Source: Pseudobdellovibrionaceae bacterium (GTDB lineage: Bacteria > Pseudomonadota > Alphaproteobacteria > Micavibrionales > Micavibrionaceae). From it: a DNA stretch of 64,000 nucleotides. A program made the position numbers and the translations under genes. The notes beneath the pieces are model-generated. The model saw only the letters and a list, made by a program, of their open reading frames with translations. It did not search any database and was not told the DNA's origin. Positions 8,803 through 64,000 of the stretch are shown piece after piece. Where the stretch lies: positions 36,690 to 100,689 of the forward strand of contig JAVEVE010000006.1 in NCBI GenBank assembly GCA_034005165.1. Reading direction: 5' to 3'. Within the stretch, counting starts at the first letter, position 1, and the number at the start of each line of letters is the position of its first letter.

Positions 8803-8844
8803 AGCTACTCAAACACATGACTTCCAATATTTTTATAGGGAGGA

Positions 8845-9471: not shown

Positions 9472-9521
9472 ATCTATTTCCTATCTAAAAAATATATATA
9501 CCTATATATCTCTATGCAAGT

Positions 9522-9549
9522 AAAAAAGGACGACCAATATAAATTGGCC
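9522..9549 (-). terminator. Rho-independent terminator after the 9604..9903 ORF
   Basis: Minus strand reads GGCCAATTTATATTGGTCGTCCTTTTTT: a 7-bp stem (one G-U), a 4-nt loop, then a T-run. Confidence 0.5.
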
Positions 9550-9603
9550 GCCCTAGCTTGCTCTCTTGAAGAAAAACTATAATATTCAATTTCTTACGGA
9601 TAT

Positions 9604-9903
9604 TTACCTTAATTCCGGTTTTGGTTGCGGAAGAGGTGCTCTCCGAACTCCAGCCATCATGGCAAACAAGGAGCTCAACCTTTTCCCTTTATAAGGGACT
9701 TTCATGACAGCCATCGCCGCCATCAGTTTATGAACCCATAACTTACACAGTGTCGCGCCGGAAAATGTACCCGCAATCACCCATTCCACCCCCCTAAAGG
9801 CAGATCTCAGGGATGGGGTTTGGGCATAGTGAGCGTTCCTAAACGCATTACCTGCGACAGTTTTTGGACCTAACTTTCTATATATTTTATTTGGTTTTTT
9901 CAT
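9604..9903 (-). CDS. Small basic hypothetical protein (~99 aa from MKKPNK)
   Basis: The ORF-track ORF is 9604..9969. The ATG at 9903 (MKKPNKIYRKLGPK...) is preferred. One hydrophobic segment (WVIAGTFSGATLCKLWV). No family recognised. Confidence 0.4.
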   Translation of the reverse strand: MKKPNKIYRKLGPKTVAGNAFRNAHYAQTPSLRSAFRGVEWVIAGTFSGATLCKLWVHKLMAAMAVMKVPYKGKRLSSLFAMMAGVRRAPLPQPKPELR

Positions 9904-10013
9904 ACTCGAATCATACCATTTCGAAGCCTGACTTTGCAAATTCCGAAACGGGAAAATCAGCACTATCAAACTGATTTTATTTAATAAAAAAATTTAAAAA
10001 CAATTCTTATAAT

Positions 10014-13038: not shown

Positions 13039-14291
13039 TACACGACCTCCTCCAAAGCCATGACAAGCGACTTGATATCCGCATCGGTTGTCATTTCGGT
13101 CGCGGTTACCAGCATTCTGTTCCCGTTCAGCGGAAGACCTGGGATAATATTTTTATCCAGCAAATTTTTATGAATGCCCGATACAGGCCCAGAAAGCTCG
13201 ATGACAAACTCATTAAAGAATGTATCATTTTCAATCCGCACCCCTTCTACTGCACCTAAAGCCATAGCCAGAGCACAGGCCCGTTCATGATTGAGAAGAG
13301 CAAGTTGCTTTAACCCCTCCTCACCCAACAATGCGGCATGGACTGTAAAGGCCAACGCGCAGAGACCTTGATTGGTACAGATATTTGATGTCGCCTTTTC
13401 ACGGCGAATATGCTGCTCACGCGTTGACAGGGTTAAGACAAACCCTCGCTTACCTTCTGCATCTGTGGTTGCACCGCACATTCGTCCGGGCATCTGACGT
13501 AAATATTCCTGTTTGCAAGCGAAAAACCCGAGATGCGGCCCGCCGTAGGACATCGGAATGCCAATACTTTGCGCTTCACCACATACAATATCCGCCTCCA
13601 TTGGTGCAGGCAGCATACCAAGAGAAACAATCTCAGTTACCACGACGACCAGTTTTGCTCCAATTGCATCACATTTTTTCTTCCACTCTGCGTAGGCGTG
13701 CGGCTTACCAAAGAAGTCAGGAGACTGGATGATAATTGCTGCAACGGCCGTGTCTTTCTGCTTGGTAATGTTTTCTTTTCCGATATAGCTCTCCAAAACC
13801 TCGCGATAATGCGGATGGAGTTCATTTCCTACAATAATCTTTTCCCTGCCCGTCAGGCGCATAGCCATAAGGGCCGCTTCTGCGCAGGACGTCGCCCCGT
13901 CATACATAGATGCGTTTGCAACATCCATTCCAGTGAGTGTGGCTATGAATGTCTGGAACTCGAAAATGACCTGCAATGTTCCTTGCGCCATTTCCGGCTG
14001 GTACGGCGTATAAGAAGTCAAGAATTCGGATCTTTGAATAATATAATCCACAGCTGAGGGGATATGATGGCGATATACGCCTGCCCCTAGAAAAAAAGGC
14101 CCGTCATTGGCTGCTCTGTTTTTAGCTGCTAGGGCCGACATAAAGCGCTCGACTTCCATTTCGCCTTGATGATCTGGTAGATCATAGTCATTTCCGGTCG
14201 GCAGTTGCTTGAAAAGCGTATCGACGCTTTGCGCGCCGATTTCTTTTAGCATGTCCTTGCGGTCGTCGTGGGTAAGGGGCAAGTAACGCAT
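13038..14291 (-). CDS. gcvPA: Glycine dehydrogenase (aminomethyl-transferring) subunit 1, GcvPA
   Basis: 417 aa. Typical GcvPA N-terminus MRYLPLTHDDRKDMLKEIG and SYTPYQPE motif. Confidence 0.93.
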   Translation of the reverse strand: MRYLPLTHDDRKDMLKEIGAQSVDTLFKQLPTGNDYDLPDHQGEMEVERFMSALAAKNRAANDGPFFLGAGVYRHHIPSAVDYIIQRSEFLTSYTPYQPEMAQGTLQVIFEFQTFIATLTGMDVANASMYDGATSCAEAALMAMRLTGREKIIVGNELHPHYREVLESYIGKENITKQKDTAVAAIIIQSPDFFGKPHAYAEWKKKCDAIGAKLVVVVTEIVSLGMLPAPMEADIVCGEAQSIGIPMSYGGPHLGFFACKQEYLRQMPGRMCGATTDAEGKRGFVLTLSTREQHIRREKATSNICTNQGLCALAFTVHAALLGEEGLKQLALLNHERACALAMALGAVEGVRIENDTFFNEFVIELSGPVSGIHKNLLDKNIIPGLPLNGNRMLVTATEMTTDADIKSLVMALEEVV

Positions 14292-14299
14292 CGTTTTTT

Positions 14300-14671
14300 T
14301 TAATCCACTGTTTTGAGGTAATCTTGGTAGGCAGCTTCATCCATCAGGGAGGCTAATTCATCCGCATTGGTCATTTTAAACTTTGCGATCCATCCGTCCG
14401 CTCCGGACTTCAAATGATCAAAATCGTTCTCCAATGCATCATTTACACGAATTACTTCCCCTGTGACGGGAGTATAAACCTCCGCCGCTGTTTTAACGGA
14501 CTCAACAACTGCAAAATTCGATCCTTTTATGTATGTAGCCCCCAATTTAGGCAGCTCGATATAGACAAGATCCCCCAGCGCATGTTGTGCATATTCTGTA
14601 ATCCCGATAACGGCGACATCATCACCTTCCAGTTTGATCCATTCGTGATCTTTCGTGTATTTTGTTGTCAT
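14300..14671 (-). CDS. gcvH: Glycine cleavage system H protein
   Basis: 123 aa with the lipoyl-lysine motif ESVKTAAEVY and YTKDHEW at the N-terminus. Confidence 0.95.
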   Translation of the reverse strand: MTTKYTKDHEWIKLEGDDVAVIGITEYAQHALGDLVYIELPKLGATYIKGSNFAVVESVKTAAEVYTPVTGEVIRVNDALENDFDHLKSGADGWIAKFKMTNADELASLMDEAAYQDYLKTVD

Positions 14672-14700
14672 GTTTACGTCCTTTATTATTTATGAATGAT

Positions 14701-15756
14701 CTATTTTGTTGGTGCTTTTGTTCGCGGCCTCAAGAATGGCATGGTGACGACTTTAGCAGAGATTAGCCTTCCTCTGACGTCAATATTTACTTCAGTATTC
14801 GGAGTTGCATATTCCATCGGCAGATAGGCTTGCCCGATGGAACATTGTAATGTCGGAGAAAATCCTCCACTAGTCAGAGTGCCGATTTCATCTCCTTCAA
14901 AGGATTTTACTACTGCCCCCTCACGAGCAACCCCTTTATCCGTCAGCATAATTCCAACACGTTTCTTGGTCGGCGCCGGCATTGACTCTTTTGCATCTTT
15001 GCGCATCACCCATCCGAGATCCGCTTCAAGGGGGGGGGTTGTTGCGTCAATATCATGACCATAAAGGCAATAGCCCATTTCAAGGCGCAGAGAGTCTCTT
15101 GCTGCCAACCCTATCGGTTTCACGCGATCATCAGAAAGAAGTTTATTCCATAGGACTTCAGCAGAGTCATTCGGAACCGAGATTTCAAATCCGTCTTCTC
15201 CTGTATAGCCAAGGCGCGAGATAAACATCGTGTAATCCCGATACCATACGCCCATATACGGAACATCAGACAGATCAATCCCCAAAGCATCGCGTAAGAC
15301 TGCCTCAGATTGCGGGCCTTGTAGTGCCAATAACGCCCAGTCTTCAAAATGGATAAATTCCAACCCATCTGTCAGATTGGATTTGATCCATGCAATGTCC
15401 TTCTCCTTACATCCCGCATTTATCACCATATGGAAATCATCTTCTCCAGCCTTGGCGACCATCAAATCATCAATAATCCCGTTTTGCCCGTTGAGCAGGA
15501 CCGTGTATTTGGTACGCTGCACACCGAGCTTTTCAAAGGAGGATGGTGTTAGCCTTTCAAGAAGATCTTGCGCGCCTTTTCCTTTCACGCATATTTGCCC
15601 CATATGCGATACATCGAACAGACCTGCATGGTCACGTACCCATTCATGTTCTTTCAGAACACCCAGATCATAGTAAAGCGGCATATCATAGCCAGCGAAC
15701 TCTCCCATCTTGGCATTTAGCTTCATATGGGCGCCGTGGAGCGGTGTTTGTTTCAT
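14701..15756 (-). CDS. gcvT: Aminomethyltransferase, glycine cleavage system T protein
   Basis: Full-length GcvT similarity (TPLHGAH..MGEFAGYDMPLYY, LFDVSHMG). The ATG at 15756 (MKQTPLH) is preferred; the ORF-track TTG at 15786 would overlap the purS stop. Confidence 0.93.
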   Translation of the reverse strand: MKQTPLHGAHMKLNAKMGEFAGYDMPLYYDLGVLKEHEWVRDHAGLFDVSHMGQICVKGKGAQDLLERLTPSSFEKLGVQRTKYTVLLNGQNGIIDDLMVAKAGEDDFHMVINAGCKEKDIAWIKSNLTDGLEFIHFEDWALLALQGPQSEAVLRDALGIDLSDVPYMGVWYRDYTMFISRLGYTGEDGFEISVPNDSAEVLWNKLLSDDRVKPIGLAARDSLRLEMGYCLYGHDIDATTPPLEADLGWVMRKDAKESMPAPTKKRVGIMLTDKGVAREGAVVKSFEGDEIGTLTSGGFSPTLQCSIGQAYLPMEYATPNTEVNIDVRGRLISAKVVTMPFLRPRTKAPTK

Positions 15757-29712: not shown

Positions 29713-31032
29713 TTACTCTTTAATATGTATATTGGAAAGCTCACGACTAATAGCAATAAAGGCGTTAATCAAGTCTGCCTGCTCCGGTGCATCATAGTAG
29801 TTCCCCGGGTTTGAGGCACAGTTCCTGAAATAATCCTTGGTGGAATTATTGATGCCAGAAGTAAATGTTACCGTATATATGGTAATACCCTCCTCCTTCA
29901 TATTTTCACATGTCTGAGCCAATTTTTCGTCCAGATCATGGTCTGTCAGGCGAAGCGTTGTCCATGGACCATACCCGCTATAGCTGCTGCTGCCACCACC
30001 GATATTGTTATCTCCGTCCGTCATCAATAGAGCAACTTTTCTGACCTTCTTATCACTCCAACTGGCGCCTTCACGGAATGGTGCTTCCGGAGAGAGAACA
30101 CGGTAGCCCCAAACCATACCCAAATTGCTAAGCGTGTTACCTGATGCATAGAGCGTATCAATCTTATTGGATATGTCCCAGTAAGAACTCGTCAGTGGCA
30201 AAATATAGGATTTATTACATCCTGAGTTTTTATTGCTGTTATAAGGGTTACGGTACATATCCCATTTCCAGCCAGTCTCATAATTTTCAGTGTCTTGCGG
30301 AGTAGTTCGAGCCAAAACGCATCCCCACCATTTCGTGCTTTTTGATTGATCAAAACTTGTTCCGTACGAATTATTTACAAAAGCAGTATCATAGGTCGTT
30401 CCATCAGGGTTCTTTCCCAAACCATATGGGCCGACATTCACGGCAGCAGAGAAAGGAACAATCCCGATTTTGACCAGACTGGAGCAGTACTCGTCTTTAC
30501 ACAATGTATCCAGAAAAGCTCTTGATGCCGTTTTCAATGTTCCTATATTATTATTGGTCGACATGGATCCCGTGACATCCACGACCAGTGCCACTTCTAA
30601 ACCAAGGATCTCCCGAGTGACGCGTGTGTTGGCGGCAACTGTCATTTGGTCGACCCCCAGTAACCTCGAAAATGAAGTGTCGTAATCTGCCTTTGCACTC
30701 ACCAGAATATCTTCCCCGACGATCTGAATATTCAGATCATAAGTCGCTCCGATTTTCTGTGATGGGTAATTCTGATAAAAAAACTGGTTCACTTTTGCGT
30801 AGACATCATCATCTGTTTTTGCTGCTGCAGCAGCCGCCAAAGCCGCGGCATCCAGAGCATGTGACAACCGTTTCTGAACCATATAGGCCATCGACATATC
30901 AACAGCCATCCCTGCACTTCCGACAACAACAGGAACAATCATTGCGAATGCTACTGCAGTCGCTGCTGCATTCTCTCTTATGAAGGACTTCAGTATCTGC
31001 TTCAAATTTGTGCATTCTTCCAAAATGTTCAT
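29713..31032 (-). CDS. TadG-like pseudopilin with von Willebrand factor A domain
   Basis: 439 aa. The N-terminus ENAAATAVAFAMIVPVVVGSAGMAVDMSMAY matches the Flp pilus-assembly TadE/G-like signature. A vWA domain follows, with MIDAS-like VVDVTGSMS and LLMTDGDNN. Confidence 0.78.
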   Translation of the reverse strand: MNILEECTNLKQILKSFIRENAAATAVAFAMIVPVVVGSAGMAVDMSMAYMVQKRLSHALDAAALAAAAAAKTDDDVYAKVNQFFYQNYPSQKIGATYDLNIQIVGEDILVSAKADYDTSFSRLLGVDQMTVAANTRVTREILGLEVALVVDVTGSMSTNNNIGTLKTASRAFLDTLCKDEYCSSLVKIGIVPFSAAVNVGPYGLGKNPDGTTYDTAFVNNSYGTSFDQSKSTKWWGCVLARTTPQDTENYETGWKWDMYRNPYNSNKNSGCNKSYILPLTSSYWDISNKIDTLYASGNTLSNLGMVWGYRVLSPEAPFREGASWSDKKVRKVALLMTDGDNNIGGGSSSYSGYGPWTTLRLTDHDLDEKLAQTCENMKEEGITIYTVTFTSGINNSTKDYFRNCASNPGNYYDAPEQADLINAFIAISRELSNIHIKE

Positions 31033-31035
31033 TTC

Positions 31036-31563
31036 TTATCCTCCCCATGTTACGGTTGGACTTCTACGACCTCTGGCGAACGCCACTTCGCTAAAATCAA
31101 TATCGTCAGTAAAGTATTTCGAAAACATAGGCTCGTAACCATATTGAACGGTTACTATAATAATTCCCTCACCCTCAGGCGCAAGGCCTGCAACGCTTGC
31201 TACGGCAGCATCATTCTGTGGCATATTCCGTGTTTCTCTCCACAGGACTTCCGGATTTTGGTCCTCATCAAATCTGATGCTTACAATATCTATTCCGAAT
31301 GATGAGGTTCCGTATGGCTCGAATGCCAATTTTGCGCCTTCAATCAAGTCATTCAATTCTGTAGGATCAATCGATCTGTTCCTTGAGACAAGATCTGCAG
31401 CTATTTGTGAAGATGTGATTGTTTTAGCAGATAACGTAATTCCGTTTCCTAAATCAAATACTCCCATCAACAAGACAAGCATAACAGGGAACAGCATTGC
31501 GGCTTCCAGAACAGCAACACCGTCCTCGTTACGTATCCAGTTGTGGAATAGAGTTTTCATCAT
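31036..31563 (-). CDS. TadE-like pseudopilin
   Basis: 175 aa with N-terminal EDGVAVLEAAMLFPVMLVLLMGVFDLG (TadE N-terminal domain pattern). 4-nt overlap with the upstream tadE-like gene. Confidence 0.72.
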   Translation of the reverse strand: MMKTLFHNWIRNEDGVAVLEAAMLFPVMLVLLMGVFDLGNGITLSAKTITSSQIAADLVSRNRSIDPTELNDLIEGAKLAFEPYGTSSFGIDIVSIRFDEDQNPEVLWRETRNMPQNDAAVASVAGLAPEGEGIIIVTVQYGYEPMFSKYFTDDIDFSEVAFARGRRSPTVTWGG

Positions 31564-32111
31564 AGTTCGTCAACCACCAGCTCTACGTCATATGGTTCTG
31601 TTTCAAGAACGATTGTTGAGATAAATCTTTTTGAGTTTCCCTCGCCATCCGACATGAATTCAGCAATCAACGGGGTCATCAATTCATATTGATAAGCTGC
31701 ACGAATAAGGACAACATCATTAACCGATCCTGCATCAAATCCTTCGGAGTCCAGATTCCCATCCTCATCATAGCTGGCTGCATGATTTGAAAAGTCCGAG
31801 AATCCATTCAAATGGACAACTTCATACTGGATTTTTGAGCACTCCAGAAAAACACGCGCAGAGTCACATAATGCATCCTTGAACATTTGTTCAGGATCAC
31901 CTTTTGTCTGTTGAACCTGTCCTGTCTTTATCAGACGAGCGGCTTCACTGGTTGCATGGTCCAGCGTGCTCATACCTACAAACATCATGGACATCTCGAT
32001 GATCCCAAGAAGCAAATAAACAACAGGCATAGCTACCATAGCAAATTCTACGGCTGTTGCGCCTCTGTCATCTTTGACCCATGTCTTGCGTATAGAAAAA
32101 CCCATTCCCAA
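31560..32111 (-). CDS. TadE-like pseudopilin
   Basis: 183 aa. DDRG/ATAVEFAMVAMPVVYLLLGIIE fits the Tad prepilin-like G/xxxxEF processing motif plus a hydrophobic helix. The ATG at 32105 is a likely alternative to the TTG at 32111. Confidence 0.75.
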   Translation of the reverse strand: MGMGFSIRKTWVKDDRGATAVEFAMVAMPVVYLLLGIIEMSMMFVGMSTLDHATSEAARLIKTGQVQQTKGDPEQMFKDALCDSARVFLECSKIQYEVVHLNGFSDFSNHAASYDEDGNLDSEGFDAGSVNDVVLIRAAYQYELMTPLIAEFMSDGEGNSKRFISTIVLETEPYDVELVVDEL

Positions 32112-32754: not shown

Positions 32755-34800
32755 CTATACTGCGATCATGAAGAACAGATAGATCAAAATAACCAGACCG
32801 GCGATTCCGCCGGAGACCATTGTTGATATTTGCTGGCCTGTACTTTTACCGTATGACTTGTTTGTTTCCAGCTCTTTGCTAAGACGCGCATGTTCATTTC
32901 TCAATCTCTGGAACTGATCCATTGCTATGGCAAATAATTTTGTGTCATCCTGAATTTGTTTTGCATTGTTGAATATCTCGGCTAGAAGAGTTAAATCACC
33001 TTTTGCCTTCACTCTATCCACTTCTGCCTTTGTAGATTTTCTTCGTTCACGGTCGTGATAACGATTAGTCAACACATCAAGGTGCTCTCCTATCCACAAT
33101 GATAGGTTAGGCAGGGCATGAATTTTTTCCCTTTGCTGAACTTTAGAGAAAATCTTTATGGCTGCCGATATCTGGCGATGCCGTTCATCAGACATTAAAT
33201 CCGCAGAAAATGCTTCGATTGCCTGTCTGTCATGCATAAAGAGATAGGCCACAATATGGCGATCAAAAAACCACGCGGGCTTTGATTTTTCTGCCCCTAT
33301 TCCATTTAAGGCAATCAATAAATCCTTTGATGATCTGACATAGTATTGTTTCAGTTTATCACTTAGGCATCTGGCCGACGGCGATAGAAAATACGCACAG
33401 CGCTCCAATCCAAATCCTGCTGATTTCTGAAGAAGATACATACGGCAGCTTTCGAATTTTCCAGGCTCTTCACCTAAAGGGAAGCCGGCATTATATCGAC
33501 CCGATGCCCAATGTGGAACAATTTCTCCCTGAATAATTTCGACAAAGACATTCAAATCTTTTTCACTGACTATAGCATCCACTAATAAATGTCCGAAATG
33601 CTCAGGAAAAAACACATGTCCCTTATAAAAAACAGGAAAGCTAGGCGCTAAAGCCATTGTCAAATAGCAGACAAGACGCTCTGCATAGTTTGCACCGGAG
33701 GAGTTTCTTTTGGCGAGCTCAACGGCATTTTCGTATCTTTCCTCATATTCTTTAACCTGAATTGCTCTATTCAGCCAAAGATAAAGTTCTCCAGTTTCAA
33801 CCATTTCAACTGTGGCAGACGGGTCTTTATAGAGCTGCATCGCCAGAACGTCAGGACGAAAATATTTCTTTTTCTTAAATTCTATGGGGCGCGTGGATTT
33901 CGGCACAGGACGGCTTCCTTGCTTGGCAGTAACACGACGACCATCAAGCCATTCTTTAATATCCCAGATTGTCCAGCGTGTTGCGATGTCATCGCTTAGA
34001 AGGCCACGAAGCACTTCGATAATCTGCCCAGGGAAGCGATCACGACTTGTAACCAGATTGAATGTCCCATGCTCAAGCTTATGCAGAATAATTTCTTCGC
34101 GGTTCATGCCTTCCGAGAAATCATGCGGGGCAATCATCAAAGCCAGAGAAACTCCCAACGCATAGATATCATCCGCATTGGTAGCTTCCCCCTTCACATG
34201 CGGGTTCGCAAGAGATCTTTCAATGGTCTCGTACAGCGCAGACTGGGCGAATCCGCTTGGCACAGAAAGACATTCGCCTAATTGCACATTCTCGAAGTTT
34301 TTGGATTCTCCATCGAGAATATTTTCCAGACAGATATTTCCGTGTGCCACTCCACGATCATGCAAAGCGGCAATAGCATCAACCAAATTCAGGAAAATAG
34401 AGTTCAAAACCAAATCAAGTTTTAATCCCAAAGATTTGATTTCTTTCATGGAAGAAAGTGGCTTACCCGGAAATCCTTCATATATAAAGACGTATTTCTC
34501 TTTTCTTTCCGGTGTCCATTCTACAACTCCGGAGGCAGCTATCTTTTGAAGCGAACTTGACATTGCGTTCATATATTTATGAACAATGTTGAGACGTGGC
34601 ACCAAATTATCAGGACATACAAGCGCATAGCCCTTGCCGCCGTTTTTTGTTTCGGCTTCATAAGCCTTCGCCGTTCCTCTGTCAAGGAACGGCAGTGGTT
34701 TTCCGGGAAAGATTTTGATGTCACCTTTTAGGGTAACTTCAGCAACAGTCGATGTCGTTGCTTTCTCTTTTTCTTTTGGTTTATCGTCTTGCTGGGCCAT
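32755..34800 (-). CDS. Tail-anchored protein-kinase-like protein, predicted catalytically inactive (pseudokinase), 681 aa
   Basis: Residues ~40-300 follow the Hanks kinase layout, but LHDRGVAHGNICLENIL replaces HRDLKPEN, VQLGECLS replaces DFG, and YALVC replaces VAIK. The ADDIYALGVSLALMI (DxWSxG-like) motif is retained. A long helical region and a coiled coil follow, then a single C-terminal TM (MVSGGIAGLVILIYLFFMIAV). Confidence 0.6.
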   Translation of the reverse strand: MAQQDDKPKEKEKATTSTVAEVTLKGDIKIFPGKPLPFLDRGTAKAYEAETKNGGKGYALVCPDNLVPRLNIVHKYMNAMSSSLQKIAASGVVEWTPERKEKYVFIYEGFPGKPLSSMKEIKSLGLKLDLVLNSIFLNLVDAIAALHDRGVAHGNICLENILDGESKNFENVQLGECLSVPSGFAQSALYETIERSLANPHVKGEATNADDIYALGVSLALMIAPHDFSEGMNREEIILHKLEHGTFNLVTSRDRFPGQIIEVLRGLLSDDIATRWTIWDIKEWLDGRRVTAKQGSRPVPKSTRPIEFKKKKYFRPDVLAMQLYKDPSATVEMVETGELYLWLNRAIQVKEYEERYENAVELAKRNSSGANYAERLVCYLTMALAPSFPVFYKGHVFFPEHFGHLLVDAIVSEKDLNVFVEIIQGEIVPHWASGRYNAGFPLGEEPGKFESCRMYLLQKSAGFGLERCAYFLSPSARCLSDKLKQYYVRSSKDLLIALNGIGAEKSKPAWFFDRHIVAYLFMHDRQAIEAFSADLMSDERHRQISAAIKIFSKVQQREKIHALPNLSLWIGEHLDVLTNRYHDRERRKSTKAEVDRVKAKGDLTLLAEIFNNAKQIQDDTKLFAIAMDQFQRLRNEHARLSKELETNKSYGKSTGQQISTMVSGGIAGLVILIYLFFMIAV

Positions 34801-52670: not shown

Positions 52671-52730
52671 TTTCTTATACTTATGATCTAAACTCTGTCG
52701 CGAGAGTTACCGTTTTTTTTGAGGCCCCAT

Positions 52731-54422
52731 ATGAAAAGCATTCTTCCCCTATCGCTCACTGCCCTTCTTCTTTCATCCTGCTCTTTTATTCCCGGCTATT
52801 CCCAGCCGGATGTTGAAGTCCCCCAAAGATGGAAGCATGAGGTTGACACAGAAAGTCAAGTTCGAATCCCCGAGAAATGGTGGACGCTTTATCAGGACGA
52901 GACGCTAAATATGTTGGCGGAAGATGCACTGACCCAAAATCTTGATTTGCGCGCAGGTTTCGAACGCATCAATCAGGCTCGATCTTCTTTACGTGCAGCA
53001 GGAGCCAGCATGCTTCCTTCAGCAAGTGCCTCTATGGGGGCCGAACGCGCGCGAACCAATCCAGCATCAGGATCGTCTTCAACGGATAATAATTTCTCGG
53101 CAGGACTTGCCATTTCCTATGATCTCGACCTGTTCGGCGCAAACCGCGCTGGAATTGAGGCTGCACGCGCGGCACTGCATTCCCAGCAATATCAACAAGA
53201 AGCTCTCAAGCTCGTTACAATGGGCGATCTGACGGAAGCATACTTTAATCTGCTTTCGACCCGCGAGCGCGTGCGTATTGCGGAAGACAATCTGAAGAAC
53301 TCTCGCGAAGTTTTGCGTATTATTCAAGTGCGTGTTGATACAGGACTTGATTCCGATCTGGAGCTCTCGCAACAGCGTGTTGCAGTATCGTCCAGTGAAG
53401 CTGCCCTTGCCACTCTGAAGCAGCAAGAGTCTGTCTACGAAAATGCTCTCGCTCTGTTGCTCGGACGTGCGCCGCAGACATTCGACTTGATGAGCACCAA
53501 AACAATTGCGGAACTCCCTGTACCAAACATCGCGTTGGAGCAACCATCTTCCCTTCTGGAACGCCGTCCTGATATTCATGTGGCCGAACAGAACCTGATT
53601 GCTGCAAATGCCAATATTGGTGTTGCCCGTGCAGCATTCTTCCCGTCTCTCAATTTGGGAGGAACTGGATCTGCTGCGGTTGCGTCTTTAGGTGATCCTG
53701 CAACAACTTTGCTTGCAGCAACAGCATCTCTGGCTGCTCCCCTTTTCACGGGAGGAAGGCTTGAGGGCAATCTGGATCAAGCTACATCGCAACAACGCGA
53801 GCTGGTTGAAACCTATCGGAAAACAGTGCTGACTGCCTTTAAAGAAGTCGAGGATGCGCTCGCCGCTACCAAGGCTGCCGCAGAGCGTGAAGTCGCGTTA
53901 CGCACAGCTATGAATAATGCGCGCCGCGCCTATGATATTTCCCGCAAGCGTTATGAAGTCGGAACAATCGACTTCCAGACCTTGCTAGATACACAGGCGG
54001 GGCTGCTCAGCGCTGAGGATACCTATGCACAAGCTTTAGATGCCAAATTGTCGGCCTCTGTCGATCTGGTTAAAGCTTTAGGTGGCGGATGGACAAATCC
54101 TGATACGCTGACAACTCCCCAACCTGATGTGGCAGAAATATCTACTTCTGAAACTCCGGTTTCGGAAACTCAAATTGTGGGAGCAGCTTCCTCAGAGACG
54201 CCAGCCCCCCAAGCCATGGTTGCGCAGCCTGACATGGCAATCGCTGTTGAACCAGCAGCTGGTGTAACCGAAGCTGCGGTCCAACCCGTTGAGGCTGCTC
54301 AGGGTACAATTACCGAGACAGTTATTTCTGCTCGTCCGACGGCAGCTCCTTCCAATGAAGGATACGAGCATATGAATGAAGCTCAAAAGCTTGAAGCGCA
54401 AGAGATTTCCGTATCTCCATAA
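52731..54422 (+). CDS. Efflux outer membrane factor lipoprotein, NodT family, with a ~110-aa low-complexity C-terminal tail
   Basis: Lipobox LLLSSC, WW..Y.D..L motif (EKWWTLYQDETLN), two OEP repeats, and LGGGW at the end of the barrel domain. An Ala/Pro/Glu/Thr-rich tail follows. Confidence 0.88.
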   Translation: MKSILPLSLTALLLSSCSFIPGYSQPDVEVPQRWKHEVDTESQVRIPEKWWTLYQDETLNMLAEDALTQNLDLRAGFERINQARSSLRAAGASMLPSASASMGAERARTNPASGSSSTDNNFSAGLAISYDLDLFGANRAGIEAARAALHSQQYQQEALKLVTMGDLTEAYFNLLSTRERVRIAEDNLKNSREVLRIIQVRVDTGLDSDLELSQQRVAVSSSEAALATLKQQESVYENALALLLGRAPQTFDLMSTKTIAELPVPNIALEQPSSLLERRPDIHVAEQNLIAANANIGVARAAFFPSLNLGGTGSAAVASLGDPATTLLAATASLAAPLFTGGRLEGNLDQATSQQRELVETYRKTVLTAFKEVEDALAATKAAAEREVALRTAMNNARRAYDISRKRYEVGTIDFQTLLDTQAGLLSAEDTYAQALDAKLSASVDLVKALGGGWTNPDTLTTPQPDVAEISTSETPVSETQIVGAASSETPAPQAMVAQPDMAIAVEPAAGVTEAAVQPVEAAQGTITETVISARPTAAPSNEGYEHMNEAQKLEAQEISVSP

Positions 54423-55368: not shown

Positions 55369-56142
55369 TTATTTGGACGGAACGACATCCAGATAGATGC
55401 GGTGCCCGTATGCACCAGACGGATTTAAGCGGGCAGTGGTCAAAACCTTTGCCGTCATCTTCAACTGAATAACAAGGTGAGAGCCTGTTTCGTCGGAACT
55501 AGCAGAAAAAGACTTCACCATCGGAGAAGACTTTAAGTCCATACTCTTGGTTGCGACCCACTTGTTTCCAGGCAATTCTACCATCAAAATATGCTCGCCG
55601 TTATCAAGATCAAATTTCATCTCAGCCGGCTTTGTCGTATCCAGAACAATGCGTGTGACATCATTTTTCTGTTCCCCAATACGAATAGAAGTTACTGCGG
55701 CTTCTTTGGGGCTTACAGCAACAGCCTTTTCTTGTTGTTCCGGTTTTTGCACAGGCTTGGGAGCTAACATAGGTGGCACAGGTTTGGGTGCTACCGGCTG
55801 TTGAGCTATAGGCTTCGGAACTTGTTGTGCATCTGCCGTCACGTTATAACTGGCCTCGATCCGGTCCAACTCAAGTGATAAAGCTCGAAAATGGCTTTGC
55901 ATCACATCCATTTTTTGCAAAGTCGGCTTTGCCCTTGCAACATCCCCCTCCAATCGGGACACTCGGGCCTCGATCATAGACAGTCTTTCGCCATCCAGTG
56001 TCTCTTTACTGACTTCAGGAACAGGGTTTTGGGGCATTACTGTGTCGTCTGGAGCTTTTTGAGGCTGTTGGACAGGTGCTGCCTGGCAGGCAGCCAAAGC
56101 GAGCGTCGAAAGTAATAAAAGGGATAAATGGTTCTTGCGCAT
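55369..56142 (-). CDS. Lipoprotein with coiled coil, Pro-rich linker and C-terminal AMIN-like domain
   Basis: From ATG 56142: lipobox LALAAC, a coiled-coil segment, PKPIAQQPVAPKPVPPMLAPKPVQKP, then VTSIRIGEQKNDVTRIVLDTTKPAEMKFDL...LMVELPG (AMIN-like). Confidence 0.55.
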   Translation of the reverse strand: MRKNHLSLLLLSTLALAACQAAPVQQPQKAPDDTVMPQNPVPEVSKETLDGERLSMIEARVSRLEGDVARAKPTLQKMDVMQSHFRALSLELDRIEASYNVTADAQQVPKPIAQQPVAPKPVPPMLAPKPVQKPEQQEKAVAVSPKEAAVTSIRIGEQKNDVTRIVLDTTKPAEMKFDLDNGEHILMVELPGNKWVATKSMDLKSSPMVKSFSASSDETGSHLVIQLKMTAKVLTTARLNPSGAYGHRIYLDVVPSK

Positions 56143-56226
56143 GGGTCCTAAAGTGTCGGGAGAATCGGTAATCGTCAATTCCTCCCCTATTTCCGCACAG
56201 AATTATCCACAAACCTTCTTGCTGTT

Positions 56227-59499: not shown

Positions 59500-60543
59500 T
59501 TATTTCTTACCGCGGACACGCAAACGTCCGTCTTTCTCGATACCCGGCAAAACTTCTGCCTGGATACTCAACACTTTCGTTCCTTTTTGACCACTTCCTC
59601 CACCGAGATCAGCTGCATAAGCAGGAGGAACAAGGGCTTCCCATTCTATTTTTCCTTTTGCGACTTCAAAGCGAACCAGTGTCCCGTCAATCTTTGTCAG
59701 GTCATCTAAAAGCTGCTGGACACGAAACGTATATTTCATGACCTCGTTGTTGGATAACTCGTAGGCATCTGTAAGCAGCTTTGTGCTTGCAGCATCGGTT
59801 TGTTGCTTCACCTGATCGAGATTTCTGTTCAAGAAATTGATCATAATATATTGCGCCGCAATAAAGGCCATCAGCACTACACTGACGCAAACACCTGCAA
59901 TCAACAAAATTCTTGCCGTAGCACGGGAGAGTTGTTCTGTTCTTAATTGGCGGTTGCGCCACGGGATAATATCTGCGAGCTGGTCGTTAATTGTAATGAA
60001 GTTTGCATCCATGCTCTGGATACGCGGCAGAATGGTTCGAGCTGCTCCCAAAAAGATTTGCATACGACCGGTTTCCTGATCCCAGCGCAAAGCACCGGCA
60101 GCTCCGTCCTTTTCGTATATGTAGACTGTATCTTTATCCCAGAAGTCGCTGTTCCCCGGAAGAGCTGCCGCCAAAGGGCACCAGCTGTCAGGGTGTGAAA
60201 CCATAACTGTCGATGGGCACGCCAGATACCAAACACGATCCCCTTCGATAGAATAGACATAGTGAACTTTTTCTGTCGCACAGGCTTGAGATGCAGCATT
60301 CCAAACTGCTTCATCTTCCATCCCCGGGACACACGGGATTGATCCCCCAACCAATTCGGACGGCAAGTACGGATTCAGGTCACGGATAAAATATTTTGCC
60401 TCGCCAGCAAGCTTCGTTCCTACTGTTGGCTGTGGTTTTTGCTGAATGCGCTCTTCACCCGAGACATTCGCATTTTCGCTGCCGGATACAAAGACTGGAG
60501 GATTCTCATTCTTATCTTTTTTAGGGCCTAATCCAAATGCCAT
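59500..60543 (-). CDS. Bitopic membrane protein, possible GspL/PilM-PilN-like assembly component of the adjacent type IV filament-like module
   Basis: 347 aa. ~205-aa cytoplasmic N-domain, one TM (ILLIAGVCVSVVLMAFIAAQYIMI), then a coiled-coil plus a small C-terminal domain. 1-nt overlap with the platform gene stop. The topological analogy is the only evidence. Confidence 0.4.
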   Translation of the reverse strand: MAFGLGPKKDKNENPPVFVSGSENANVSGEERIQQKPQPTVGTKLAGEAKYFIRDLNPYLPSELVGGSIPCVPGMEDEAVWNAASQACATEKVHYVYSIEGDRVWYLACPSTVMVSHPDSWCPLAAALPGNSDFWDKDTVYIYEKDGAAGALRWDQETGRMQIFLGAARTILPRIQSMDANFITINDQLADIIPWRNRQLRTEQLSRATARILLIAGVCVSVVLMAFIAAQYIMINFLNRNLDQVKQQTDAASTKLLTDAYELSNNEVMKYTFRVQQLLDDLTKIDGTLVRFEVAKGKIEWEALVPPAYAADLGGGSGQKGTKVLSIQAEVLPGIEKDGRLRVRGKK

Positions 60544-61763
60544 TACATTTTTCCTTCCATTAAACCACCCATCATACTGTCCATGCTCATATTCATAACA
60601 GTCAGGGCGTAGATCGCGCTTCCGAAACCAATCGCCAAATAGACACCTGTAAATAAAAAGGCCAGCCAGACAATTAGTTTATGCTTCAAACGAGCTGCCT
60701 GAGCGCGAAGCTCAGCAATTGATTCCATGATTGTAGCAACCTGAGATAAATCAGACAAGGTGGCCAGTTCCAGCCTTTCCGAACGGCTTAAAGGCTCTCT
60801 GTCGAGAGCAGTTCCCAATCCTACCCCACGCGAGAGCTGTTCGTTTGCAGCGTCCCAATATGCCGCAACTTCCGGAGAGTTAGATGCCTCGGACGATTGC
60901 TGGAGTGTATCGTTAATAGGCACGTTGGAGCGCAGCATTCTGGACGCTGCTGACATCGAGTCAGCAAAACTCAGATCCCTCATATAGCCGCCAATCAAAG
61001 GGATTTTTCTGACAATACGTTGTGTCGGCCAATCCCGTTTTCCGCGGTTGATAAAGAAAGAGAAAACGCACCAGCCCATAAACCCTGCAAATCCGAATGC
61101 TATCCAGATGAGAATATCCCATGTAAGTTCAAGGTTATGAGTTACGCGCACATATTTTTCCAGATCAGGTCCTTCTTTCGGGGCGTTGTCCTTAAACCAG
61201 TTCAGAACCGTTCCTTTTCCCCAAAACAGGGATTGCACAATTGTGACCACATCAAAGGCCAACCAGCCCATCGTGCCCATAATCGCACCCTTATTCTTAC
61301 GCTTCTGGGTAATCGCGTTAATGGCATAGGGAATACCTTCGGTCAGTTTCCCTGCACGCTCGCTGGCGGCAATAATAGCCAAGGTTGAACGATCAAAAAT
61401 CTGAAGTGCTTTCAAAGCATCCATCAAACCCAAACCTCTAGCCAAGGCCTCTCTGGCAGGTGCCAGAATATTCTGGCGGGTTGGGTTGGTTTCGGCTTCA
61501 ATAATTTTCCACAAAGCTACACCAGGCGATGTCGACGTTGCACGGAACATAATCCCGCGAAGCAACTGAACTTGCCACCAGCTGGAACGGGCCAGCAATC
61601 TCTCAAGAGGGGTACGGGAGTGCGCACGAATGGTTAGAACGTGACCGCCTTTTTTCCTGACAGCATCCCGAACATCACTTTCAGTCGGAAGATACATGGT
61701 CTCGGTCGCAGTCCGCGGACCTGAACGACTTTCATATGCGATCTGGACAATCCATTGTTGCAT
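60543..61763 (-). CDS. GspF/PilC-family inner-membrane platform protein
   Basis: 406 aa. N-terminal small domain pattern (..Y.....G......ESDVRDAVRKKGGHVLTI), two T2SSF-like repeats (ALARGLGLMDALK; QLSRGVGLGTALD) and three TM segments. Confidence 0.75.
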   Translation of the reverse strand: MQQWIVQIAYESRSGPRTATETMYLPTESDVRDAVRKKGGHVLTIRAHSRTPLERLLARSSWWQVQLLRGIMFRATSTSPGVALWKIIEAETNPTRQNILAPAREALARGLGLMDALKALQIFDRSTLAIIAASERAGKLTEGIPYAINAITQKRKNKGAIMGTMGWLAFDVVTIVQSLFWGKGTVLNWFKDNAPKEGPDLEKYVRVTHNLELTWDILIWIAFGFAGFMGWCVFSFFINRGKRDWPTQRIVRKIPLIGGYMRDLSFADSMSAASRMLRSNVPINDTLQQSSEASNSPEVAAYWDAANEQLSRGVGLGTALDREPLSRSERLELATLSDLSQVATIMESIAELRAQAARLKHKLIVWLAFLFTGVYLAIGFGSAIYALTVMNMSMDSMMGGLMEGKM

Positions 61764-61769
61764 CTATTT

Positions 61770-63599
61770 TTACGACTCCAGATAATTGAGCGCAGATTTC
61801 GGGTCAACAAACCCACTAATAACCAAATCAATCAGTCCGTTTTTCCGTGTATGAACGATAACACCTTCTTCGTGAACGATGTCGTTTACGTTTTGCATCA
61901 AAGCACGATACACTCTGTCACGGTCTGCCGGTCCCAAGGTAATCAGCAACGCATCCAGCAACAATGTCCGTCCAGAAATACCTGTCCGGTTACACAGATC
62001 GCACCCGCTCATGTTCCGGCGACGAACAATGGCAGCCGGTTCGATTCCGAGCATATATATCTCGTCTTGGTCAAGATAATCTCCTGCGCGCCCCTGATTT
62101 GCACAACCCTGGCACAACGTCTTTACCAAGCGCTGGTTAATAATTGCGCGAACCTGTTGCGCCAAGGTAAATGTCGACGCGCGTTCACGCTCTGATGGCA
62201 TAAGAGATTTTAAACGCTCGAAGGTCTGGAGAGCTGTGTCCGCGTGAACCGTTGATATCACTGTGTGACCCGATTCAGCAGCTTTCAAAGCTGTTTCCAC
62301 AGTATCACTATCACGCAATTCCCCGATAACAATATAATCCGGATCGTGACGCATTGCTGCGCGGATCAAATCGGAGAATTCTCCGCCGGGCATTCCGGGA
62401 CGAACCTGCCATTGCGTTGCGTATCTCAATTCATATTCGATCGGATCTTCAATAGTCAGAACATGTTTTCTGCGGCGGTCGATATACTGGATACAGGCAT
62501 AAAGTGTTGTTGTTTTACCGGAACCTGTCGGCCCGGAGAGCATCACCAGACCTCCCCCCCCTTTAATTTCAGGAGATAGAGACTGGGCCAGATAATTTCC
62601 GACATCTTCGTGACGTTTAAAAAGCTCATCGAAGCCTTTCAAGGACGCACGGTCCAACAAACGCAAGGTCAGCTTTTCACCATCCTGCGCCTGAGGTCCT
62701 GCGGCGACACGAACATCGATTACACGACCTTGCCATGTAAAACTGAAGCGTCCGTCTTTCGGCGCTATCCTGTCGCCGAAGTTCATCCCGGCATCCCGCT
62801 TAATCAGCGTAGTGAGACGGGCCATGGCGTCAGAAGGCATGATGTGAATTGGAACCAAGTCACCGTCAATACGGTATCTGATCCAGTTCGGGTTGGTTAT
62901 GTTGTTGTCTTGCAGAATGTGAATATCGGATACACGCATCTGCAAAGCTTCTGCGAGCATGTCACGCATAAACTGGTTTAACAACAAACCGTTATCGGTG
63001 TCGTTTAACCATGAAGCCAATGTCTTTTCGCATCGGTCAGCCGACAAATCATGAACTGCACGCATTGTCTGTAATAACTCTGCGCGATCCCACACTTCCG
63101 CTTCGATACGTTCAACCATCAGACCAGAACGATTAGCTGTGGAGATAAGGGCATCAGTCTGCCGCGTGTTCAGTTCGTTCAACGGCGCAATTTTCAATAC
63201 GCCATCGTGGAGACCAATCAAGTGAATACTAAGCGGCAACCATGACTGAACCGGTAAGATGGAGCGCAATTGGTCACCATTAGCATGGTCTCGAATTCCA
63301 ACCACTTCAGTTTCATCATCAGAAGAAACTGGCGTTCCGGCCATATCCATCAGCTGATCAATAGAACGCGAAATTCCTTGCTCCATAAGGATAACACGTT
63401 CACGCTGGACCATGTCCAGATAGCGTTCACGACCTTCCTTGGCTTTAGCTTTACGGCGATCACTGTACTGGCGGCGCTCGACACCGTCCGGAGGAACATG
63501 TTTGTCTTGACGACGATCTGCACCAGAGCGAATTTCTTCGCTTTCCGGTATCACCGCATCATCACGTTTAAACTCTTCTTTTCCGGATTCGTTATCCAT
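61770..63599 (-). CDS. GspE/PilB-family type II secretion / type IV pilus assembly ATPase with a charged N-terminal extension
   Basis: 609 aa. Walker A LSGPTGSGKTTT, VLTIEDPIEYEL, Walker B/Asp box HDPDYIVIGELRD, His box GHTVISTVHA, and tetracysteine CQGC...CDLC. A T2SSE_N-like segment is preceded by ~90 Arg/Asp/Glu-rich residues. Confidence 0.88.
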   Translation of the reverse strand: MDNESGKEEFKRDDAVIPESEEIRSGADRRQDKHVPPDGVERRQYSDRRKAKAKEGRERYLDMVQRERVILMEQGISRSIDQLMDMAGTPVSSDDETEVVGIRDHANGDQLRSILPVQSWLPLSIHLIGLHDGVLKIAPLNELNTRQTDALISTANRSGLMVERIEAEVWDRAELLQTMRAVHDLSADRCEKTLASWLNDTDNGLLLNQFMRDMLAEALQMRVSDIHILQDNNITNPNWIRYRIDGDLVPIHIMPSDAMARLTTLIKRDAGMNFGDRIAPKDGRFSFTWQGRVIDVRVAAGPQAQDGEKLTLRLLDRASLKGFDELFKRHEDVGNYLAQSLSPEIKGGGGLVMLSGPTGSGKTTTLYACIQYIDRRRKHVLTIEDPIEYELRYATQWQVRPGMPGGEFSDLIRAAMRHDPDYIVIGELRDSDTVETALKAAESGHTVISTVHADTALQTFERLKSLMPSERERASTFTLAQQVRAIINQRLVKTLCQGCANQGRAGDYLDQDEIYMLGIEPAAIVRRRNMSGCDLCNRTGISGRTLLLDALLITLGPADRDRVYRALMQNVNDIVHEEGVIVHTRKNGLIDLVISGFVDPKSALNYLES

Positions 63600-63610
63600 T
63601 CACAATACCA

Positions 63611-64000
63611 TTAGTTAGTAGTTGTCGCTGTTGAAGTTGATCCGGTTGTCGAAGAGCTTGACGAAGAAGAGCTGCTCGAAGAGCCGGAGGAACTGCTGGA
63701 TGTTCTGCTTGAGGAGGACAGAGAGCGGTCGAAGAGCAAACGGACACGATCGTTTCCGCTTAGGAATTCAATACCATTTTCAACAATATCTACATTCCAT
63801 TCAACTCCGCCCAGTACGATACTTTGCTTATTGGAGATAACACGACTTCCCCCCGGTCCATTGATAATGGCTTTTTGCGGAGAATGCGAAGTAATCACGA
63901 AACCTTCGAGAGCTTGACGCTTATCAGCAGGTTTGACTTCAACAGGTGCACCAGCCTGAGATACAACAACGGCTTTTGTATCGCGGTTGATTGCACTTTT
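63611..64000 (-). CDS. Partial ORF (3' end) of unknown protein ending in a poly-Ser/Thr tail
   Basis: The ORF track starts it at GTG 63898, but the frame stays open to the window edge (upstream reads KSAINRDTKAVVVSQAGAPVEVKPADKRQALEGF). The C-terminus is SLSSSSRTSSSSSGSSSSSSSSSSSTTGSTSTATTTN. Stop lies 11 nt before the ATPase ATG. Confidence 0.6.
   Translation of the reverse strand, partial: KSAINRDTKAVVVSQAGAPVEVKPADKRQALEGFVITSHSPQKAIINGPGGSRVISNKQSIVLGGVEWNVDIVENGIEFLSGNDRVRLLFDRSLSSSSRTSSSSSGSSSSSSSSSSSTTGSTSTATTTN

Follow-up and report, generated by a model that had tools for sequence, protein, structure and literature searches.

Four tightly packed genes on the minus strand at the end of a 64-kb stretch of contig JAVEVE010000006.1 (the whole analysed stretch, below called the window) are, with a probability that we put at roughly 0.6, the central block of a ten-gene, non-canonical machine of the type IV filament (T4F) superfamily, whose operon is split here and whose product is likely a type IVb-like fibre for contact with prey. 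The machine consists of a divergent A24 peptidase, a CheY-like response regulator, a secretin, a protein of 519 aa (p519), an ATPase, a platform protein, a bitopic protein of 347 aa (p347, 'L-prime') and members of three protein families, fam3, fam6 and fam7. It is conserved in Micavibrio-like bacteria, which attach externally to other Gram-negative cells to feed on them. In a preliminary description, made from the window alone, the block was taken for a minimal module with no pilin, secretin or peptidase. The four genes looked minimal because the window ends inside the p519 gene and because a local rearrangement detached fam3, fam6 and fam7. The proteins of the locus were analysed by Pfam and NCBIfam profile searches, PDB sequence searches, hhalign, Foldseek, AlphaFold2 and tblastn.

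The operon continues beyond the edge of the window

The layout of the four genes was exactly as first described: the p519 and ATPase genes are separated by 11 nt, the ATPase and platform genes by 6 nt, and the platform and p347 genes overlap by 1 nt. We also confirmed the proteins that had been read from them, i.e., a partial open reading frame (ORF) with a Ser/Thr-rich tail, a 609-aa ATPase with a CxxC...CxxC motif, a 406-aa platform protein and a bitopic 347-aa protein. The partial ORF, now known as p519, runs to base 64000 without an in-frame stop, and no second ATPase or platform protein, no secretin and no A24 peptidase were found within the 64-kb window. The continuation of the operon is present on a Logan contig (L001), which was found by an exact-match look-up of the ATPase and is 100 % identical to the window across all 9772 shared bases. 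On this contig, the genes for a 125-aa CheY-like receiver, a 619-aa secretin and the complete p519 precede the ATPase gene, the A24 peptidase gene is divergent, and pyrB, plsY, dprA, topA and a flagellin gene follow further out. The secretin and peptidase genes lie at most 4.2 kb beyond base 64000. Clearly, they seem to be missing only because the window stops inside p519. Thus, the absence of secretin and peptidase holds for the window but not for L001, and the absence of a pilin holds for the window but not for its relatives, in which pilin-like genes accompany the block. Likewise, the suggestion that the rest of the machine lies upstream was right for the remainder of p519, the secretin, the response regulator and the peptidase, but not for fam3, fam6 and fam7, which were separated by rearrangement. 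The genes on L001 are not those of an ordinary type II secretion system (T2SS), mannose-sensitive haemagglutinin (MSHA) or type IVb pilus operon, of which the block might have been the tail end.

Full-length p519 is a secreted periplasmic protein with a signal peptide. It has Ig-like matches in Pfam (ASH, 2.8e-11; HYDIN-Ig, 2.2e-10; DUF1573, 2.8e-6) and a match to choice_anch_D ('choice-of-anchor D') in NCBIfam (50 bits, cut-off 45). Its C-terminus is formed by a conserved beta-rich domain, which ends with LLLFDRSLSS, and by a Ser/Thr/Gly-rich tail. The protein is conserved in 60 loci. As its gene occupies the PilP/GspC position, between those of secretin and ATPase, a PilP-like role may be assigned to it by position only; hhalign comparisons of p519 with PilP and with protein X of Methylibium were not significant, and a search of PDB sequences with the p519 profile gave nothing useful. 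A connection between the Ser/Thr tail and the glycan genes that adjoin the block was considered and rejected, because the tail occurs family-wide, irrespective of whether wecA is a neighbour.

The secretin matches Pfam Secretin (PF00263, 58 bits) without Secretin_N repeats, and 54 of 59 members of the family share its lipobox cysteine. The sole match among PDB sequences was BfpB, a lipoprotein secretin of type IVb pili (E = 1.6e-11). Its NCBIfam scores are all under the respective cut-offs (MshL, 106 bits vs 250; PilN-IVB, 87 vs 288; GspD, 48 vs 351). The peptidase, about 170 aa long from its likely start codon, comprises Peptidase_A24 only (68.6 bits) and lacks a methyltransferase domain.

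The ATPase and the platform protein

The ATPase matches Pfam T2SSE (PF00437) with E = 1.5e-77. Its Walker A motif lies at residue 356, and CQGC at 496 and CDLC at 533 together form a tetracysteine motif. In NCBIfam it scored far under the cut-offs of GspE (232 bits vs 630), PilB (229 vs 676) and TadA (61 vs 373). Among proteins of the PDB, GspE scored highest (180 bits), followed by PilF (164), PilB (149), PilT (122), BfpD (99) and CpaF (45), and the identity to a type IVb (T4b) PilQ is 25 %. The platform protein matches Pfam T2SSF (PF00482) in two stretches (E = 7e-13; 49 bits, cut-off 25), and scored 40.7 bits with NCBIfam GspF, for which the cut-off is 424. Its identity to E. coli GspF, E. 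coli HofC and T4b PilR is 14-18 %, and as a single sequence it had no sequence match in the PDB. Its orthologue in Micavibrio aeruginosavorus ARL-13 is annotated as 'hypothetical'.

Placement of both proteins on a tree had been recommended. Small neighbour-joining (NJ) trees, built from few reference sequences and lacking support values, join the ATPase and the platform protein of the Micavibrio-like bacteria with proteins encoded by Rhodoferax and Methylibium plasmids, apart from GspE/HofB and T4b PilQ/PilR.

The N-terminal part of the ATPase has features of its own. The first ~55 residues are Arg-rich and poorly conserved, and are followed at residues ~56-88 by a segment, GRERYLDMVQRERVILMEQGISRSIDQLMDMAG, which is near-invariant in 69 orthologues and matches no family. 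This segment might serve in regulator docking or nucleotide binding. A likeness of the N-terminal segment to the MshEN-like motif for cyclic di-GMP, seen by eye, was dropped, as the ATPase has no T2SSE_N or MshEN match in Pfam.

The 347-aa protein has the topology of GspL and BfpC

That p347 is a genuine gene is shown by its 1232 relatives at E <= 1e-3, all annotated as 'hypothetical' and all from Micavibrio or alphaproteobacterial metagenome-assembled genomes, and by a scan of one genome per species, in which p347 is encoded in 212 genomes. An exhaustive profile search yielded no more than 184 cluster representatives. In the loci examined, the p347 gene always follows the platform gene.

The protein has one hydrophobic segment, at ~205-239. 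A first AlphaFold2 run, based on 37 close homologues, gave a predicted local distance difference test (pLDDT) score of 60.5, and the Foldseek search with its result was uninformative; a second run, based on 58 diverse members (17-50 % identity), gave a pLDDT of 86.5. According to the second model, a disordered N-terminus is followed by a cytoplasmic alpha/beta domain (~60-185) that ends with beta-beta-beta-alpha-beta, by a long helix (198-264) that holds the membrane segment, and by a periplasmic domain (267-346) with the order alpha-beta-beta-alpha-beta-beta. The same overall architecture is known for GspL, for a PilM-PilN fusion and for BfpC. Thus, we propose that p347 may be the functional counterpart of one of these proteins.

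The preliminary description allowed for p347 being a member of a well-known family, and this did not turn out to be so. No match was found in Pfam, either for p347 or for the 58 diverse members, nor in NCBIfam, nor among PDB sequences searched with the p347 profile, and hhalign with E. coli GspL and with T4b PilO2 gave nothing significant. Foldseek with the whole chain against the PDB returned nothing at E < 1e-3, with weak hints to 3hrg (actin-like fold, probability 0.72), EpsM and PilO; weak hints to EpsM and PulM concern the C-terminal domains.

A related locus provides a further indication. In L089, on a Logan ERR10123318 contig with a GC content of 39 %, an ORF that corresponds to residues 102-308 of the ATPase still adjoins a p347 homologue. 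In the T2SS, the N-domain of GspE binds the cytoplasmic domain of GspL, and hence the pairing in L089 indirectly supports a GspL-like role of p347. L089 occupies the same topA-dprA-plsY-pyrB...asd site as the complete loci, and four ORFs of the system remain there: an A24 peptidase, the 225-aa N-terminal ATPase piece, the 297-aa p347 homologue and a 149-aa ORF. Secretin, p519, the catalytic domain of the ATPase and the platform protein are absent from it. As the L089 protein is present on many contigs, the organism is common. Two readings fit the locus: a remnant in decay, or a sub-complex of the ATPase N-terminal part with the L-like protein that has been kept.

Pilin-like genes and the split of the operon

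Clustering of all ORFs that neighbour the p347 loci revealed fam3, fam6 and fam7, the genes of which are located directly 3' of p347 in most lineages. In the fam3 protein, ~183 aa long, a single membrane segment separates a short N-terminal part in the cytoplasm from a periplasmic domain of ~130 aa, which is a GspM-like topology. The protein has no Pfam or NCBIfam match, hhalign with GspM and with the p347 family was not significant, and a profile search of the PDB gave nothing useful.

The fam6 and fam7 proteins, ~245 aa each and ~220 aa if mature, start with a short basic leader of 8-30 residues, after which a Gly precedes a hydrophobic helix, NVLFLILIAVALFAALSYAVTQS in fam6 and SALVYILIAIALLAALT..FMEPSSQQ in fam7. 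The residue at +1 is non-Phe, and +5 is occupied by Leu or Tyr. Although their identity is otherwise only ~50 %, 29 sequences of fam6 do not vary at 23 consecutive N-terminal positions, and the mean majority frequency is 0.98 in this part vs 0.54 elsewhere. The two families are homologous across their first ~70 residues (hhalign 96 %). Both have conserved cysteines, and fam7 is Cys-rich. The N-terminus of fam7 weakly matches NCBIfam GspK (E = 1.4e-4; 21 bits vs a cut-off of 130), GspK being a tip pseudopilin that lacks Glu5. Comparison of fam6 with GspG by hhalign was not significant, and a search of the PDB with the fam6 profile gave nothing useful. When G-[FM..]-T-L-x-E and Flp motifs were sought by regular expressions in the window, in L001 and in 80 related loci, nothing but a TadE was matched in the window, and the matches elsewhere were chance ones. 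These scans missed fam6 and fam7 because both lack Glu5; it was the clustering of conserved neighbours that found them.

As described earlier, the operon of the window continues into glycan genes. These were identified by Pfam and NCBIfam as encoding a WecA-like GT4, a divergent epimerase and GT1, and are followed by the gene for an AMIN-domain lipoprotein. The same four genes stand after p347, instead of fam3, fam6 and fam7, throughout a wecA sub-clade that includes the window (L001-L011 and L013). No match to fam3, fam6 or fam7 was obtained by tblastn in the window. In the 11 sub-clade loci whose sequence extends at least ~5 kb past p347, the ~10 kb that follow this gene are likewise free of the three. 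However, in a sister genome, CG1_02_46_17, the ATPase block is located on MNUG01000021 (L003) and fam3-fam6-fam7 on MNUG01000029, where the trio adjoins asd and the gene of a hybrid histidine kinase, its neighbours in other lineages too. In another lineage, a fam3 and fam6 pair stands alone between a gene of a methyl-accepting chemotaxis protein and cutA. We infer that in the sub-clade of the window the trio moved elsewhere in the genome, and that it is also encoded by the organism from which the window derives. The relocated trio of CG1_02_46_17 (L083) is flanked by ORFs without annotation, two small ones of 96 and 92 aa before it and one of 305 aa after it.

Conservation in Micavibrio-like genomes and expression in ARL-13

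In the scan of one genome per species, the best 80 loci of the 212 p347-encoding genomes were kept. By tblastn, the block of a divergent peptidase and response regulator-secretin-p519-ATPase-platform-p347 was detected in essentially every locus with enough flank (~60 loci). The identity of orthologues to the proteins of the window locus is 67-91 % for the ATPase, 67-96 % for the platform protein, 53-84 % for p347, 45-73 % for the secretin and 41-84 % for p519. The order topA-dprA-plsY-pyrB-peptidase, followed by the divergent operon, is kept in nearly all loci. Neither the cluster on L001 nor those of the related loci contain a gene of a retraction ATPase. We propose that the ten-gene T4F machine was inherited vertically across the Micavibrio-like predatory alphaproteobacteria.

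A second reduction, different from that in L089, was observed at the same syntenic site in L090, on an ENA ERZ17092890 contig with a GC content of 46 %. It keeps a secretin-like protein of 465 aa, a p519-like protein of 444 aa, a p347-like protein of 371 aa and a fam3-like protein of 189 aa, and its pyrB-asd interval contains no gene of an ATPase, platform protein, peptidase or response regulator. Natural dissections of this kind, namely the split operon, the ATPase N-terminal part with the L-like protein only, and the secretin side only, can help to indicate which parts of the machine cooperate.

For ARL-13 we used the expression table in the supplement of its genome paper (PMC3189940), in rows to about GMV_2004, with the order of columns set by matching GMV_107 and GMV_530 to the text of the paper. 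GMV_1939 to GMV_1930 in these rows are the same ten genes in the same order, beside pyrB, dprA and topA. They are listed as a peptidase (507 bp), a response regulator, a secretin (1785 bp), a hypothetical gene (1632 bp), an ATPase (1842 bp) and five further hypothetical genes (1221, 996, 531, 738 and 774 bp). The sizes of the hypothetical genes fit those of p519, the platform protein, p347, fam3, fam6 and fam7. Thus, the listed ARL-13 cluster keeps fam3, fam6 and fam7 attached, whereas in the sub-clade of the window they are detached and replaced at this site by wecA and other glycan genes. In the same rows, the expression of the cluster genes rises 1-5 fold in the prey-attached phase (PMC3189940). 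The highest expression in the cluster is that of GMV_1931, the fam6 orthologue, with 9.9 in the attack phase and 53.8 in the attached phase (PMC3189940).

The authors of the ARL-13 genome paper described dispersed pil genes and an incomplete 'T2SS' from which GspC, G, H and K are missing, and reported that secretion genes are up-regulated in the attached phase (PMC3189940). The listed genes also include a complete Tad locus with its own peptidase (GMV_527-539) and a type IVa pilus (T4aP)-like set with two PilT-type genes and a full-length PilD (GMV_1530-1544; PMC3189940). Since ARL-13 has both of these sets, the GMV_1930-GMV_1939 cluster is a third system. A 2025 review on Micavibrio states merely that these bacteria 'possess T4P genes' (PMC12428579). 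In the survey of Denise et al. (2019), 884 'generic' systems were left unassigned (PMC6668835); a system whose pilins escape the profiles, as here, would fall among them.

Comparison with known systems

The machine clearly belongs to the T4F superfamily. It has a T2SSE ATPase and a T2SSF platform protein and, on L001, an A24 peptidase and a secretin; the place of the pilins would be taken in its relatives by fam6 and fam7, with their basic leader, Gly and invariant helix, and with neither Glu5 nor a match to an N-methyl model. Yet, judging by its sequences, it is not an ordinary T2SS, T4aP, type IVb pilus (T4bP), MSH or Tad system, because it fails, one by one, the features that define each of them.

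The likeness to type IVb pili, i.e., the bundle-forming pilus (BFP), the toxin-coregulated pilus (TCP)/Cof and the R64/PilL-V thin pilus, had been noted before from the gene order, and it is partly borne out. As in these pili, one compact operon has the order secretin - periplasmic protein - ATPase - platform protein, the secretin is a lipoprotein with BfpB as its sole PDB match and with PilN-type IVB secretins as its plasmid matches, and there are one larger 'major' and one 'minor' pilin-like gene, whose products of ~220 aa have leaders 8-30 residues long and no Phe at +1. BfpC is bitopic, with the topology of p347. As in TCP, there is no retraction ATPase, and relatives are carried by conjugative plasmids. 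In contrast to type IVb systems, the ATPase is nearer to GspE and PilB than to BfpD and stands apart from T4b PilQ in the NJ tree, the secretin is well under the PilN-IVB cut-off, the pilin-like proteins are devoid of Glu5 and of the N-methyl motif, and the peptidase is not bifunctional. Moreover, homologues of PilO2, PilP, TcpQ and a lytic transglycosylase are lacking, and the L-like and M-like genes are located after the platform gene, not before the ATPase gene.

With the T2SS (Gsp/Eps/Pul), the machine shares a tetracysteine ATPase whose best named relatives are GspE proteins, a platform protein of the GspF superfamily, bitopic proteins of GspL- and GspM-like topology with weak Foldseek hints to EpsM and PulM, a Glu5-less fam7 with a GspK-like N-terminus, and the lack of a retraction ATPase. 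However, it has two pilin-like genes only, for which the fam7 match to GspK is the sole pseudopilin match in Pfam and NCBIfam, and no GspG to GspJ, no GspC (HR and PDZ domains), a secretin without Secretin_N that scores far lower with GspD than the cut-off, an ATPase and a platform protein far under the equivalog cut-offs, and a monofunctional peptidase. The GspL, GspM and GspC families were not matched in Pfam or NCBIfam by p347, fam3 or p519, nor in Pfam by the 58 relatives of p347, and hhalign did not match GspL or GspM either. It differs from Tad (type IVc) systems in its tetracysteine ATPase, which scores low with CpaF and TadA, and in its single 406-aa platform protein. From T4aP and MSHA systems it differs by the lack of PilM, PilN, PilO and PilP matches, of PilT in the cluster and of MshEN.

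The best plasmid matches of both the ATPase and the secretin come from Rhodoferax ferrireducens T118 and Methylibium petroleiphilum PM1 (Table 1). Their clusters have the same gene order, (response regulator)-secretin-small periplasmic protein-ATPase-platform protein, followed by a p347 homologue of ~310 aa, a bitopic protein of ~155 aa and pilin-like genes. The ~310-aa proteins are homologues of p347 by hhalign (99.9 %, E = 6e-34, and 99.85 %), and a fam6 homologue in Rhodoferax (98.2 %) and a fam7 homologue in Methylibium (95.9 %) were recognised in the same way. The plasmid ATPase is 39 % identical, and the secretin 26-27 % identical, to the Micavibrio-like proteins. In contrast to the Micavibrio-like loci, which are chromosomal and syntenic, these clusters are plasmid-borne, and the protein encoded before the ATPase is ~220-235 aa long, without the Ig-domain array of p519. 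The Rhodoferax cluster additionally differs by two secretin genes, a peptidyl-prolyl isomerase gene and three pilin-like genes. All accessory genes of the plasmid clusters are annotated as 'hypothetical'.

Table 1. Coordinates of the genes and loci considered
Feature	Sequence	Coordinates	Strand	Remark
Four-gene block	window	59500..64000	-	
p519, C-terminal part	window	63611..64000	-	ORF open to window edge, 129 codons
ATPase, 609 aa	window	61770..63599	-	Pfam T2SSE
Platform protein, 406 aa	window	60543..61763	-	Pfam T2SSF
p347, 347 aa	window	59500..60543	-	bitopic, one hydrophobic segment
AMIN lipoprotein, 269 aa	window	55369..56178	-	AMIN Pfam 6e-6
Outer-membrane efflux-type lipoprotein, 567 aa	window	52719..54422	+	assigned from sequence
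681-aa protein	window	32755..34800	-	C-terminal membrane segment
TadE (183 aa), TadE (175 aa), TadG+VWA (439 aa)	window	29713..32111	-	sole pilin-like genes of the window
p519, full gene	L001	8430..9989		519 aa
Reduced locus	L089	8601..11331		
Reduced locus	L090	7242..11687		
Small ORFs (96, 92 aa)	L083	6640..7243		precede relocated trio
R. ferrireducens T118 plasmid cluster	NC_007901.1; L091	~159-172 kb; 2398..15195		adjoins PRTRC-system genes
M. petroleiphilum PM1 megaplasmid cluster	NC_008826.1; L092	~362-370 kb; 5303..13108		adjoins integrase and H-NS gene

Pilus, secretion machine or remnant

If the machine builds a type IVb-like fibre, fam6 and fam7 would be cut by the peptidase just behind the Gly, the ATPase, as a hexamer, would dock on the platform protein and on the cytoplasmic domain of p347, the periplasmic domains of p347 and fam3 would pair, and p519 would bridge to the secretin. 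The fibre that emerges through the secretin would have fam6 as its major subunit and the Cys-rich, GspK-like fam7 as a minor or tip subunit, and would serve as a surface structure for prey contact, although protein export by the same machine is also possible. We favour such a fibre because the secretin is a pilus-type lipoprotein, because the subunits are a major and a minor one of T4b size, and because relatives are carried by conjugative plasmids.

Several points weigh against it. The fibre itself, the cleavage of its subunits, the contacts between its proteins and its role are what we infer from the gene set. The L-like and M-like labels are based on the topology of the proteins, on the place of their genes and on Foldseek hints that are weak (E > 0.01), and the hhalign comparisons with E. 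coli GspL, E. coli GspM and T4b PilO2 were empty. The fam6 and fam7 proteins lack Glu5 and match neither an N-methyl pilin model nor Pfam, and could alternatively be signal-anchored periplasmic proteins. The fam3, fam6 and fam7 genes were not located in the genome or sample of the window itself, and the closest fam6 match examined in Logan came from other samples. The NJ trees contain few reference sequences. Finally, GspE is a closer relative of the ATPase than BfpD is, and expression of the cluster rises together with that of secretion genes in the attached phase; with these two observations a T2SS-like role agrees at least as well as a pilus.

A T2SS-like machine is the strongest competitor and a serious one, although we regard it as distinctly less probable than a type IVb-like fibre. 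In this case, fam6 and fam7 would form a short periplasmic pseudopilus that, during attachment to prey, drives folded hydrolases or toxins out through the secretin, with p347 and fam3 acting as GspL and GspM, and with p519 as a GspC-like adaptor for substrates or for the secretin. GspE provides both the best solved and the best named relatives of the ATPase, the order E-F-...-L-like-M-like recalls the T2SS, the N-terminus of fam7 resembles that of GspK, and the cluster is without a retraction ATPase. Furthermore, the listed ARL-13 genes already provide Tad and T4aP-like systems for pili, and the incomplete 'T2SS' of that strain, its secretion genes with increased expression on prey and the 1-5 fold rise in the tabulated values of the cluster speak for such a machine (PMC3189940). 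However, the secretin is a lipoprotein like BfpB, PilN and MshL, without Secretin_N and with its lowest score for GspD, and two pilin-like genes are found in place of the five pseudopilins G to K. The mature size of ~220 aa is that of T4b pilins, the peptidase has no methyltransferase domain, none of the proteins has a family match to GspL, GspM or GspC, and the relatives reside on conjugative plasmids, of which pili are the usual cargo.

The possibility that the machine is truly reduced and pilin-less in this organism, with fam3, fam6 and fam7 lost and a core that either makes no fibre or borrows TadE and TadG, is an unlikely one. The trio is indeed absent from the window and from the downstream flanks of the 11 sub-clade loci, TadE-TadE-TadG(VWA) genes stand in the window without Tad machinery alongside, and L089 and L090 show that real reduction has happened at the same site in related lineages. 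Yet a genome of the same sub-clade keeps the trio, together with its ancestral neighbours, on a different contig, another lineage has fam3 and fam6 elsewhere, and the ATPase, platform protein and p347 of the window are intact and 84-96 % identical to those of the nearest relative. Thus, of the term 'reduced, non-canonical' that was first considered for the block, only the second half is retained, as the wider family has fam3, fam6 and fam7.

The Tad-type genes are the only pilin-like genes of the window, as had been stated before. They lie directly upstream of mreC and mreD, and neither a Flp pilin, an A24 peptidase, CpaB-F nor TadBC is encoded anywhere in the 64-kb window. In size and order they correspond to GMV_527-529, the orthologues in the complete Tad locus listed for ARL-13, and this argues against their being borrowed. 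In ARL-13, flp, a peptidase gene and all of the Tad machinery come immediately after the trio. The Tad locus, too, appears to be split or truncated in the organism of the window. That the Tad pseudopilins serve the machine, as was once considered, is supported by nothing in our data and is not required.

A DNA-uptake (competence-type) filament, suggested by the fixed place of the operon beside dprA and by the ability of some T4F systems to import DNA (PMC6668835), is very improbable, since topA-dprA-plsY-pyrB outlasts the machine in L089 and L090, so that the adjacency looks like housekeeping synteny, the cluster contains no ComEA, ComEC or other competence gene, and the plasmid relatives are not beside dprA.

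More tentatively, and with considerable doubt on our side, the machine can be placed in a wider frame. It could be the chromosomal, vertically inherited form of a T4F subfamily that present classifications do not include and that also occurs on betaproteobacterial conjugative plasmids, and an organelle that builds or services the predator-prey junction. Such a subfamily would have L-like, M-like and Glu5-less pilin families of its own; its peptidase would not methylate, its secretin would be a lipoprotein, and a CheY-like regulator would be dedicated to it. Being universal in Micavibrio-like epibiotic predators, and having a main subunit that is induced on prey, it would qualify as an organelle of that junction. 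The machine is a third filament system beside Tad and T4aP, present in all lineages that were examined, and a testable candidate for prey attachment or enzyme delivery. As regards the evolution of T4F systems, it unites a motor like GspE, a lipoprotein secretin of the pilus type and subunits that lack Glu5. Several of its component families are undescribed, and the L, M and pilin positions are filled by new ones. The locus is also a reminder that components 'missing' at the edge of a window or after a local rearrangement do not prove a minimal system.

Neighbouring genes

A scan of 55-64 kb of the window for promoters and terminators gave no enrichment vs shuffles, and the 18-nt gap between p347 and wecA was empty. 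The AMIN lipoprotein gene is located three genes downstream of the operon, and no group but the wecA sub-clade (8 loci) retains it at that site. In T4aP, secretins are tethered to peptidoglycan by AMIN domains, and a link of this lipoprotein to the AMIN-less secretin of the putative machine is possible. The outer-membrane efflux-type lipoprotein encoded nearby on the opposite strand has a C-terminal extension of ~110 residues, which is of low complexity and rich in Pro, Ala, Glu and Thr. The gene for the 681-aa protein adjoins the TadE genes, and its product weakly matches a protein-kinase domain, below the Pfam cut-off.

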